A stretch of DNA of 5,458 nt from a virus (taxonomy: Duplodnaviria > Heunggongvirae > Uroviricota > Caudoviricetes), in the IMG/VR virus record IMGVR_UViG_2579778797_000013. One strand, 5' to 3'. This document shows positions 1-886 of the stretch, one piece after another; position 1 is the first letter of the stretch, and every line of letters starts with the position of its first letter. The translations under genes were made by a program, and so were the position numbers. Below the pieces are notes generated by a model. The model ran no database searches. It was not told the DNA's origin and saw nothing but the letters and a program-made list of their open reading frames with translations.

Positions 1-886
1 GGCGCTGCTGGCTGTTCAGGCGTGCGTTATGCTCCTGCAGCTGGCGGGAGTGATTCTGGATAGCCTGGGTGTTACTGCGGGTTCTGTTGTCGAGGCTGAC
101 AACAGCATCATTCACACGAACGTTGCCCGGTGCGCTCTGGTCAAGTGTATAGCTGCCATCTTTATTCTGATAAATTGTTGTATCGGCTTTCACATCTGCA
201 ACAACGCTCTTCACTGATACAGTTTCAACGCCCTGTCCATCAGTAATTTCACCATTTTCATCAATGGCAAACGTGGTGGCATCTTTCAGAGCATTTACAT
301 TTGTACCAAGACGGTTGAACTCATTCAGTAATGCACCGTTATTGTCTTTCGCAGCCGCAAGCGCTGAGTCAACGCTTACGCCATTTTCGATGGCTGTATT
401 GTATGCAGTAGCTGTTTTTGATGTGATAATTTCTTTCGCCTTTTTAACATCGCTGTCTATTTTCTCAATTTCCTCACCAGTAATTTTCTCTAGGTTTTCT
501 AATTTTAAAGAAGGCGTTTTAATTGCATATTTATATATATTTGCTGCCTGCTGTACTATCATCTGATTTACGACATCATCGCTTACACCAGGGAATTTTT
601 TTTTAAATTCTGTATACTGTTTACTTGATTTAATTGCCTCTACCGCATCACTTATTTCCTTTTTATTTGCAACGGAAACACTACCTTTTTCAGTATTAAC
701 CAGAAGCACATTCTCATCTTTATTTGATTGCCCTGTTTTGTATATTTTTGCAGCATCATTTCCCGTATACTCAATTGTATACTCACCTTTTATTATTTTC
801 GTCTCTGCAGCAAGCCCCCCACCACTCACCAGCAACAGTCCGGCAACAGCAGAAGAAAGAATAGTCTTAGAGAATTTTTTGTTCAT
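1..886 (-). CDS. 5' portion (N-terminal 295 aa) of a secreted, coiled-coil-rich surface protein; candidate prophage-borne adhesin, possibly a trimeric autotransporter of the Eib/YadA-like kind. Gene continues beyond window start.
   Basis: ATG at 886-884 preceded by AGGA (898-895) with 8-nt spacing. I checked every minus-strand codon in this phase from 884 down to 2 and found no stop (no tta/cta/tca triplets in that phase on the plus strand). It is missing from the ORF track only because no stop lies inside the window. Translation begins MNKKFSKTILSSAVAGLLLVSGGGLAA-ETKIIKGEYTIEYTG..., a classic Sec signal peptide (basic n-region, hydrophobic core, LAA-E cleavage-type site), followed by a K/E-rich region and N/Q-rich heptad-like sequence (..SNTQAIQNHSRQLQEHNARLNSQQR) at the window edge. 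Confidence for a real CDS is about 0.8; confidence in the Eib/YadA-family assignment is only about 0.3. Confidence 0.75.
   Translation of the reverse strand, partial: MNKKFSKTILSSAVAGLLLVSGGGLAAETKIIKGEYTIEYTGNDAAKIYKTGQSNKDENVLLVNTEKGSVSVANKKEISDAVEAIKSSKQYTEFKKKFPGVSDDVVNQMIVQQAANIYKYAIKTPSLKLENLEKITGEEIEKIDSDVKKAKEIITSKTATAYNTAIENGVSVDSALAAAKDNNGALLNEFNRLGTNVNALKDATTFAIDENGEITDGQGVETVSVKSVVADVKADTTIYQNKDGSYTLDQSAPGNVRVNDAVVSLDNRTRSNTQAIQNHSRQLQEHNARLNSQQR
806..886 (-). other. Predicted N-terminal Sec signal peptide (27 aa) of the adhesin-like protein
   Basis: MNKKFSKTILSSAVAGLLLVSGGGLAA has two lysines near the N-terminus, a hydrophobic stretch and a small-residue A-x-A-like end. There is no Cys lipobox, so a lipoprotein is unlikely. 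Confidence 0.6.

Follow-up and report, generated by a model that had tools for sequence, protein, structure and literature searches.

The Eib proteins, the closest described relatives of the gene examined here, have in common a C-terminal anchor, a coiled coil that is left-handed and a saddle and differ in their heads, EibA having an N-terminal domain only (PMC12511318). EibG-like trimeric autotransporter adhesins (TAAs) have a modular build and occur in 1 to 8 copies per STEC genome, and IgG Fc binding has been assigned to a conserved stretch of the EibD stalk around Y388 (PMC13534694). In LEE-negative STEC, prophage-encoded Eib-type adhesins play a role in resistance to serum, in aggregation and in chain-like adherence (PMC13534694). 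The YadA protein of Yersinia has the same C-terminal four-strand anchor and the same logic of signal peptide, passenger and anchor as the gene product described below, but it is plasmid-borne, carries a collagen-binding beta-roll head and is not prophage cargo. Morons and mosaic tail-fibre-region cassettes are an established feature of lambdoid phages. These are independently terminated, compositionally atypical pieces of cargo that are exchanged via conserved flanks, as the gene studied here appears to be, but in this gene the compositional boundary lies inside one reading frame and not at the gene borders.

We analysed a window of 5,458 nucleotides from a Caudoviricetes record (IMGVR_UViG_2579778797_000013). 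By its sequence, the region at nt 1-886 covers three quarters, counted from the 5' end, of a gene for a short trimeric autotransporter of the Eib type (376 aa), in agreement with the first-pass annotation, which had called an adhesin-type gene here. The frame starts at an ATG at 884-886 on the minus strand, preceded 8 nt upstream by an AGGA Shine-Dalgarno sequence, and runs for 295 codons before it exits at the left edge. The gene is 98.5% identical at the nucleotide level to that of a 376-aa "YadA C-terminal domain-containing protein" in E. coli NCTC9112 and JNEC-KY202, and an identical 295-aa partial protein (P0001) is present in the databases on a contig of 5458 nt. The full-length architecture is taken from these 98.5%-identical alleles, as the anchor lies outside the window. 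The features of the region are as follows.

1..886, minus strand: codons 1-295 (of 376) of an Eib-like trimeric autotransporter adhesin gene, 3' end cut by the edge of the window and contig (from the translation)
806..886, minus strand: signal peptide (codons 1-27), MNKKFSKTILSSAVAGLLLVSGGGLAA; the cassette's conserved 5' handle; GC3 0.41
437..805, minus strand: hypervariable, very AT-rich passenger part, codons 28-150, with the beta-sheet and first helices of the globular N-terminal domain; GC 0.325, GC3 0.25
101..436, minus strand: zone of intermediate composition, codons 151-262, with the N-terminal domain's distal helices and a connector resembling a saddle; GC 0.43, GC3 0.34
1..100, minus strand: start of the GC-rich stalk/anchor module, codons 263-295, ...NTQAIQNHSRQLQEHNARLNSQQR; GC 0.61, GC3 0.82
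887..1336, minus strand: AT-rich upstream intergenic region, putatively with promoter and 5' UTR; GC of 887-1367 is 0.41
1337..1356, no strand assigned: G+C-rich hairpin, bidirectional and terminator-like, directly after the stop of the tail-fibre assembly gene (terminator scan of both strands)
1368..1961, minus strand: tail-fibre assembly gene (DUF4376; Pfam PF14301, E = 1.2e-20), the upstream neighbour and conserved 5' flank

The order of genes at the locus, J, tail fibre, DUF4376 gene, eib-like gene, a 474-nt ORF, a 174-nt ORF and DinI, matches that of P-EibA and P-EibD, where the tail-fibre assembly gene has the position of orf-191. Judged by this order, the window gene sits where eib is canonically found in a lambdoid E. 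coli prophage. The hairpin at 1337..1356, a predicted terminator-like element, marks off the eib-like gene from the late tail operon, and stem-loops are likewise annotated upstream of eibA and eibD (AF151091, AF151675). The sequence at nt 829-1364 is 96-97% identical in genomes bearing different passengers; only a stretch of ~110 nt resembles the region upstream of eibA (73%). A simple scan for sigma-70 consensus promoters at nt 800-1450 found none, and Rfam gave no match in nt 1-1367.

On inspection, the translation begins with the features of a Sec signal peptide: its n-region (MNKKFSK) is basic, its core is hydrophobic, and there is a cleavage-type motif LAA-E. The 295-aa product matches no Pfam family. 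The remainder of the stalk/anchor module, 81 codons with the YadA beta-barrel anchor, lies past the window edge; in the full-length allele the anchor matches the YadA anchor 2lme (E = 1.6e-18), PF03895 (YadA-type anchor) is a precomputed annotation on the database protein P0002, and Foldseek matches the anchor to 2lme and to the AtaA and Hia anchors. Residues 262-308 match the EibD coiled coil 2xzr (7e-8), and a monomer model by AlphaFold2 has a single helix at 259-316. On the strength of its signal peptide, stalk and YadA-type anchor the product is a trimeric autotransporter (type Vc), predicted to form a homotrimer.

EibA (P-EibA, E. coli ECOR-9, AF151091) occupies the same locus, in the order J, lom, tail fibre, tail-fibre assembly gene, eib, orf156 and orf60. 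It is similar in size to the window protein (392 aa vs 376 aa) and shares its architecture: a signal peptide, then a globular N-terminal domain lacking a beta-roll head, then stalk, saddle, coiled coil and YadA anchor (PMC12511318). The C-terminal 134 aa of EibA are 63% identical to the window protein and its gene has the same GC3 gradient, but its N-terminal domain has no detectable sequence similarity and overall identity is 36%. The EibC, EibD, EibE and EibG proteins (structures 2XQH and 2XZR), whose heads combine an N-terminal domain with a beta-roll, have the stalk/anchor module, the prophage location and the GC3 gradient in common with the window gene. Unlike the window protein, they carry a YadA-like left-handed parallel beta-roll head and a right-handed coiled coil, and their passengers show no sequence-level homology to its passenger. 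EibA, C, D and E match residues 232-376 only, at 61-73% amino-acid identity, and the connector segment DGSYTLDQSAPGNVRVNDAVVSL aligns with the EibD saddle. Twenty-one stalk residues of EibA and EibD are absent from the window protein: in the alignment with EibD one gap of 14 residues spans SGRTDRIDYAVGAI, which includes Y388, and a second takes 7 residues. The window protein thus probably does not have the IgG-binding stretch. The window gene belongs, as an ordinary and uncharacterised member, to a known family of mosaic adhesins.

Base composition changes abruptly within this single reading frame. The first-pass annotation had counted 61 G+C out of 100 at nt 1-100 and 26 out of 100 at nt 441-540, and both counts are exact; the intermediate zone it placed at 250-440 is real (GC 0.447 at 101-250 and 0.432 at 251-440). 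The passage from an AT-rich 5' part to a part with high GC3, which it had also described, is seen in windows of 30 codons, where GC3 is ~0.20 at codons 30-120 and rises to 0.73 at codons 261-290. By segment GC3 is 0.25 (codons 28-150), 0.34 (151-262) and 0.63 (263-376, computed on the full-length allele), the codons of the last segment that lie in the window reaching 0.82. The difference in GC3 between the N segment and the C module is significant (Fisher's test, p = 5e-9). A single change point falls at codon 248 (window nt ~142), a fit with two change points places the step at codon 262 (nt ~100), and the observed likelihood ratio was reached by 0 of 1000 permutations. The low-GC segment of the gene (GC 0.31-0.43, GC3 0.25) also departs from the flanking phage genes (GC 0.49-0.60, GC3 0.48-0.66) and from host genes (GC3 0.56), and the low-GC tract extends beyond the gene through the 481-nt intergenic region at 887-1367 (GC 0.41), as far as the stop of the tail-fibre assembly gene. 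An antisense ORF at 29-217 (plus strand, 62 aa), considered as a source of the GC-richness, was dismissed by reasoning, as the GC-richness spans the whole anchor in full-length alleles.

Codon choice changes along with composition. The AT-rich part had been described as dominated by AAA, AAT, ATT and GAA codons: AAA is indeed the commonest codon in codons 28-150 (18/123) and the four jointly make up 28.5%, but ATA (7) is commoner than ATT and GAG (8) commoner than GAA. Lysine accounts for 16% of the N segment. The ratio AAT:AAC for asparagine is 7:1 in the N part and 1:4 in the C part, and the isoleucine codons of the N part are AT-ending in 12 cases and of the other kind in none. When the same amino acids are encoded with host codon usage, the expected GC is 0.407 for the N segment and 0.538 for the C module, so that about 55% of the gap in GC is due to amino-acid composition and about 45% to synonymous codon choice. 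Relative to the same expectation GC3 is far too low in the N segment (0.25 vs 0.49) and slightly high in the anchor (0.63 vs 0.56). GC1 and GC2 differ between the two segments as well.

The step is not confined to the window gene. We found the same gradient from low to high in 20 of 20 other alleles (8 from genomes, 9 from IMG/VR, PhiR5_1, eibA and eibD), a set that includes two genes published in 2000, eibA and eibD, as well as an allele whose head, a YadA-like beta-roll, is unrelated. Because every relative examined has the step, it is an ordinary trait of the family and not an event peculiar to this gene, and the earlier suggestion of a fusion specific to it is not supported. Passengers that are ~0.33-0.58 nucleotide substitutions per site apart all hold a GC3 of 0.1-0.4, and over 18 windows nucleotide diversity between alleles is inversely related to GC3 (Spearman -0.87).

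Conservation between alleles follows the same division. The C module is 99.7-100% identical at the nucleotide level between alleles whose N parts have 22-31% amino-acid identity; for allele L001 the figure is 99.7%, against alleles whose N segments share 22-31% of their amino acids with its own. The GC-rich start that lies in the window (nt 1..100) is 100% identical in 9 of the 14 other alignable alleles as well as in L001. Over codons 151-262, a zone common to some subsets of the alleles, the 14 alleles whose passenger is homologous show 52-83% nucleotide identity and L003, whose head is unrelated, shows 40%, and over codons 28-150 amino-acid identity to other alleles falls to 18-31%. At the other end of the gene the signal peptide is kept across alleles; its first 60 nt are 100% identical in L002, L006, L010 and L016, the rest of whose passengers are unalignable. 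Identity is block-like, alternating between 100% and ~60%, the latter being the noise of global alignments in the unalignable zone, with allele-dependent breakpoints at nt ~256, ~166, ~106-136 and ~76. The 320-nt stalk/anchor module occurs at 128 places in 49 of 5426 complete genomes (median 3 and up to 6 per genome), while the full passenger is present in only 2 complete genomes. NCTC9112, for one, carries 5 copies of the module. The composition step is the junction of a variable cassette and a conserved 3' module. A mosaic of cassettes on a conserved anchor is supported by the near-identical 3' module under divergent N parts, by the allele-specific breakpoints and by the contrast of 128 places with 2 genomes, and the AT-rich and GC-rich parts have different sets of nearest relatives; the first-pass annotation was right in expecting both.

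The relatives of the AT-rich part form a narrow group. Among about 15 billion proteins the named ones are all TAAs of E. coli or Shigella with the same architecture; 172 matches were obtained, and 1.84 billion representatives subsequently yielded 31 clusters at 50% identity. No relative outside E. coli and Shigella was found in 5.8 billion clusters, 1.84 billion representatives and 185,579 species genomes; the passenger profile gave 76 pattern matches in the 185,579 GTDB species representatives, 0 of which were confirmed. The AlphaFold2 monomer model predicts five strands followed by helices, with a pLDDT of 76-90 over residues 31-180. A Foldseek search of this model against the PDB matched the anchor only and returned no counterpart for the N-terminal domain, and hhalign of the passenger profile against the N-terminal regions of EibA and EibD gave a probability below 1%. 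The window thus adds a third, unnamed passenger family to the EibA-type and EibC/D/E/G-type heads of the locus. The family occurs with two stalk types, the short one and an EibA/D-like one with the 21-aa insert (P0019, P0100 and L016).

The reading that we favour, with a probability of about 80%, is that the window gene is a prophage lysogenic-conversion (moron) gene built of modules under different evolutionary regimes and reshuffled by recombination via conserved flanks. It would be moron cargo of a lambdoid E. coli prophage, lying at the prophage's right end, and consist of an upstream region and a signal peptide, both conserved, a passenger that is hypervariable and AT-rich, a semi-conserved connector, and a GC-rich stalk and anchor. 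Exchange by homologous recombination or gene conversion among lambdoid prophages, whether co-resident or incoming, which we infer from the identity blocks and the discordant neighbour sets, would use the tail-fibre assembly gene, the intergenic region and the signal peptide as the 5' flank, and the stalk/anchor with the downstream orf156/orf60-like genes as the 3' flank. Such exchange would reshuffle passenger segments and keep the anchor homogeneous. As to the order of events, a variable head may have been added to a conserved anchor, or gene conversion may have made the anchor uniform at a later stage. The passenger's low GC would be a long-standing trait of all passenger types at the locus and not the mark of a recent import; about half of it reflects a surface domain rich in Lys, Ile, Asn and Glu, and half AT-ending synonymous codons. 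The AT-richness may be maintained by AT-biased mutation, codon selection being weak in a gene that evolves fast and is poorly expressed, by selection for silencing of the H-NS type, or by a low-GC reservoir that has escaped sampling.

The first-pass annotation had read the step as a chimera, a foreign low-GC passenger fused onto a resident stalk/anchor, and a recent event in the window gene would leave such a passenger not yet ameliorated. The sharp step in GC and GC3 at the module boundary, rare AT-ending codons in the passenger such as the 7 ATA, the different neighbour sets of the two halves and a composition atypical of the neighbouring genes all fit this. The explanation is nevertheless improbable, since the gradient is found in every allele examined, eibA, eibD and the unrelated beta-roll-head allele among them, passengers so far apart hold the same low GC3 throughout, and the searches of 5.8 billion clusters, 1.84 billion representatives and 185,579 species genomes uncovered no relative beyond E. 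coli and Shigella. The anchor, for its part, belongs to the gene pool of lambdoid prophages and not to the host chromosome, as "resident" had implied. The same annotation had named this gradient, if seen across homologues from diverse hosts, as a sign of bias driven by amino acids and not of recombination, which is half borne out: the gradient is there in all 20 alleles, the diverse hosts are not. A purely amino-acid-driven origin would have a domain rich in Lys, Asn, Ile and Glu give way to a coiled coil rich in Gln, Arg and Ala, with no recombination and no codon-level signal. The differences in GC1 and GC2, the lysine content and the 55% of the gap that persists under host codons speak for a contribution of this kind. 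GC3 and synonymous choices also shift between segments, so the bias is not purely amino-acid-driven, as had been anticipated: about 45% of the gap is synonymous, N-segment GC3 is about half that expected, and the codon choice for Asn, Ile and Lys flips. Nor can amino-acid bias yield blocks of 100% against ~60% identity, and as a full explanation we find it barely credible.

Targeted hypermutation by a diversity-generating retroelement could have created the variable AT-rich part, and the gene does lie next to phage tail-fibre genes, a typical neighbourhood for such elements. We give it next to no weight: nt 1-886 take part in no template/variable repeat pair, the window and the examined flanks hold no reverse transcriptase, and the variation takes the form of indels and whole-segment replacement over ~700 nt and is not adenine-specific in a short repeat. 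A far more serious alternative, though one we hold at somewhat less than even odds, accepts the mosaicism and dispenses with a foreign origin, composition following evolutionary regime and not ancestry. A fast-evolving passenger under diversifying or relaxed selection, too divergent to recombine, would drift towards an AT-biased mutational equilibrium, while strong purifying selection and frequent, possibly GC-biased gene conversion among prophage paralogues would keep the anchor host-like or slightly GC-enriched. It is favoured by the inverse relation of GC3 to diversity between alleles (rho -0.87), by the departures of anchor and passenger from their expected GC3 in opposite directions, by the low GC common to non-homologous passenger types, by the restriction of the family to E. 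coli and by the presence of several anchor copies within genomes. The mutational equilibrium of GC3 in E. coli is about 0.3-0.45, and the values of 0.03-0.25 in some windows may fall below what mutation bias alone would give; GC-biased conversion is weak in E. coli, which also counts against this explanation.

A further possibility, which we regard as rather doubtful, is that the AT-rich segment is an uncharacterised, E. coli-restricted family of hypervariable heads whose confidently predicted fold has no solved counterpart, swapped between prophages via the two handles, and that its AT-richness is kept up actively, for instance to allow H-NS-type silencing or phase-like control of a costly surface antigen, and is not a relic of import. 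A search for the high-affinity H-NS motif TCGWTWAATT with up to 1 mismatch gave 0 matches where 1.0 was expected, a result that is uninformative, and a literature search on regulation of eib by H-NS or IbrAB returned nothing usable.

In the modular reading that we prefer, the conserved anchor and signal peptide would be fixed frames around an exchangeable AT-rich head, and typing by the 3' end cannot separate the alleles. Short-read assemblies tend to break at the eib-like gene, and many of the proteins in the databases are incomplete and come from contigs of 1-2 kb. The inverse link between GC3 and allelic diversity within one reading frame is a clean small example and not a new principle.

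The window's genes, all on the minus strand, make up the right arm of a lambdoid prophage. The features are as follows:

3703-5439, minus strand, C-terminal 578 codons of the tip-attachment protein J
1954-3333, minus strand, side tail fibre with two collagen-repeat blocks
1368-1961, minus strand, DUF4376 tail-fibre assembly gene
1337-1356, terminator-like hairpin directly 3' of the assembly gene
481-nt intergenic region, between the assembly gene and the adhesin ORF
adhesin ORF, minus strand, ATG at 884-886, running off the left window end after 295 codons

The order J, (lom), tail fibre, assembly gene, stem-loop, adhesin gene, 474-nt ORF and 174-nt ORF is that of P-EibA and P-EibD, the ECOR-9 prophages of the first deposition of eib genes. 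Versions of the gene, 68–70% identical, occupy the same locus in the inducible phages PhiR5_1, the PhiR12 series and GER2. The hairpin lies directly 3' of the assembly gene and so sets the adhesin gene apart as a unit of its own, the usual arrangement for a moron. In the G+C-rich hairpin region (1337-1365) the best T-run, GTTTTTTTTA, is on the plus strand, opposite to every window gene, and the minus-strand tail is weaker (TCTTTCGT); the hairpin may act bidirectionally or stop antisense transcription from the adhesin side. The 474-nt and 174-nt ORFs (orf-156 and orf-60 of P-EibA/P-EibD) are always 3' of an eib-like gene (5015-5666 in L001, the NCTC9112 reference locus, with equivalents in loci L002-L008 and L018-L020). 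They have host-like GC3 (0.65) and no annotated function, and they travel with the conserved 3' module.

A public protein collection holds an identical 295-aa partial protein from E. coli, encoded on a 5458-nt contig; the window is thus an entire contig of a draft assembly. By megablast, the whole 1364 nt of adhesin gene and upstream region are present at 98.5% identity in only 2 of 5426 complete E. coli genomes, NCTC9112 and STEC JNEC-KY202 (the latter sequenced in PMC13534694), where the gene encodes a 376-aa "YadA C-terminal domain-containing protein". The 81 codons beyond the window edge supply the coiled-coil remainder and a YadA-type beta-barrel anchor (2lme match, E = 1.6e-18), and the EibD stalk 2xzr aligns with residues 262-308. 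Pfam returned no family for the product. AlphaFold2 (monomer model, 32 homologues) confidently predicts a five-stranded sheet followed by helices for residues 31-180 (pLDDT 76-90); comparison of the model with PDB folds matched the anchor only, with no match for the N-terminal domain. By all criteria that sequence can test, the gene is predicted to encode a trimeric autotransporter.

EibA, C, D and E match the adhesin only at residues ∼232-376 (61–73%), and overall identity to EibA is 36%. The profile of the passenger, the AT-rich variable N-terminal part, showed no similarity to the EibA and EibD N-terminal domains. Compared with EibD, the stalk is shorter by 14 + 7 residues, among them the Y388 stretch named as important for IgG Fc binding (PMC13534694). 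The modelled architecture of the N-terminal part would resemble the EibA N-terminal domain, which is without a beta-roll head (PMC12511318). Since the locus and the C-terminal module are common to Eib proteins, but the conserved IgG-binding stretch is absent and the head lacks homology, we class the gene from its sequence as Eib-like, closest to EibA in architecture. It is an uncharacterised member of a known family; EibG-like genes number 1–8 per genome (PMC13534694).

The first-pass annotation had described a step from an AT-rich 5' part to a GC-rich 3' part of this gene. Its hand counts are exact (61 G+C of 100 at nt 1-100, 26 of 100 at nt 441-540), and the intermediate zone is real (GC 0.43–0.45 at nt 101-440). 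The step is also present at the codon level, with GC3 climbing from ∼0.20 at codons 30-120 to 0.73 at codons 261-290. With the 3' end supplied from the 98.5% identical NCTC9112 allele, GC3 is 0.25 in the N segment (codons 28-150), 0.34 at codons 151-262 and 0.63 in the C module (codons 263-376; N segment versus C module, Fisher's test p = 5e-9). The best change point falls at codons 248-262 (window nt ∼142-100), and 0 of 1000 permutations matched the observed likelihood ratio. When the protein sequence was recoded to the codon usage of the flanking host genes (1503 codons), the expected GC was 0.407 in the N segment (observed 0.325) and 0.538 in the C module (observed 0.564); thus ∼55% of the gap is due to amino-acid composition, with contributions from Lys (16%), Glu and Ile, and ∼45% to synonymous choice. 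In the N part, Ile codons are 12 AT-ending to 0 GC-ending, seven of them ATA; the Asn AAT : AAC ratio is 7 : 1 there and 1 : 4 in the C part. The upstream intergenic region is also low in GC (0.41) as far as the assembly-gene stop codon.

The alleles compared came from complete genomes (8) and IMG/VR contigs (9) and represent 16 distinct sequences. The C module is 99.7% identical in nucleotides to the NCTC9112 allele in six alleles and 99.4% in a seventh; the N segments of these seven share only 22–31% amino-acid identity with it. Identity to the window, scored in 30-nt bins, comes in blocks and switches to 100% leftwards of window nt ∼256 in L004, ∼166 in L005, L008, L011, L014 and L015, ∼106-136 in L017 and ∼76 in L002. 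At the other end, L002, L006, L010 and L016 are 100% identical over the first 60 nt of the gene and have unalignable passengers, and nt 829-1364 (upstream region and signal peptide) are 96–97% identical in genomes with other passengers. Separate searches of the halves found the 320-nt anchor module at 128 places in 49 genomes (median 3, maximum 6 per genome) and the passenger (nt 130-800) at full length in 2, with partial matches dwindling progressively towards its anchor-proximal end. Across 18 windows of 20 codons, GC3 and inter-allele nucleotide diversity are anti-correlated (Spearman −0.87). Judged by these identity patterns, the step in composition marks a boundary between modules of a mosaic family, and the patterns suggest that prophage copies exchange sequence through the conserved flanks, by homologous recombination or gene conversion. 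The N-terminal domain family is also joined to a longer EibA/D-type stalk (database proteins P0019 and P0100, and L016), so heads and stalks have reassorted. That trimeric autotransporters are modular and that Eib heads vary is established (PMC12511318, PMC13534694).

The module boundary is the part of the earlier interpretation that stands; the proposal that a foreign, low-GC passenger was fused onto a resident stalk in this particular gene does not. The same GC3 gradient occurs in every allele profiled, including L003 (with a YadA-like beta-roll head), classical eibA, eibD and PhiR5_1. Passengers ∼0.33–0.58 nucleotide differences per site apart all have GC3 of about 0.1–0.4, and anchors up to 20% apart are all near 0.6, so the composition of each module has persisted over long divergence. 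With the passenger alone as query, a word-indexed search of 5.8 billion protein clusters gave 172 matches; the best 120 all come from E. coli, apart from one Shigella, and are trimeric autotransporters of 350–426 aa or their fragments. HMMER with the passenger profile against 1.84 billion representatives found only 31 clusters, all with the domain at residues ∼27-215; in the ten looked up, among them the five most distant full-length ones, every named member is E. coli. A pattern scan of one genome per species (185,579 species) confirmed none. These searches gave no evidence of a low-GC foreign donor, the relatives looked up being E. coli and Shigella only.

What keeps the passenger AT-rich may be AT-biased mutation acting on a cargo gene that evolves fast under weak codon selection, with anchors homogenised by conversion and under purifying selection. 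Selected silencing of AT-rich DNA is another candidate; a simple H-NS motif search found 0 matches (1.0 expected), numbers too small to bear on this. An unsampled reservoir is a third. A DGR-type mechanism was excluded within the sequence available. We found no description of a within-gene GC gradient in the later Eib literature consulted; such a gradient is to be expected of a mosaic cargo gene and does not amount to a novel type of feature.

Between J and the tail fibre, at the lom position of lambda and P-EibA, lies a hok/sok-like module (3334-3702). A minus-strand match to Rfam sok (RF01794) at 3492-3651 falls below the gathering score (32.5 bits, E = 1.3e-4), and a short minus-strand ORF (3403-3486) ends ...THRSLCEFRF. 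Several E. coli genomes carry the same 369 nt at 90–94% identity under the annotation "Hok/Gef family protein". In NCTC9112 (NZ_LR134079.1) this spacer is 100% identical at ∼2.08 Mb, and the eib-like gene with its upstream region is at ∼4.56 Mb in a different prophage; the prophage of the window is thus in its own right assembled from modules that this strain carries in separate prophages. The collagen-like Gly-X-Y blocks of the tail-fibre gene (2250-2470 and 2640-2930) have the window's maximum GC (0.70–0.75) and contain degenerate direct-repeat families with spacings mostly in multiples of 9 nt. Its homologue is 517 aa in NCTC9112 versus 459 aa in the window, so repeat length is probably variable. 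The window ends lie ∼100-170 nt into the multi-copy anchor module (position 1) and inside the conserved J gene (position 5458), and many of the relatives in databases are "partial" proteins from contigs 0.7–2 kb long, which suggests that repeated modules break short-read assemblies at the adhesin locus.
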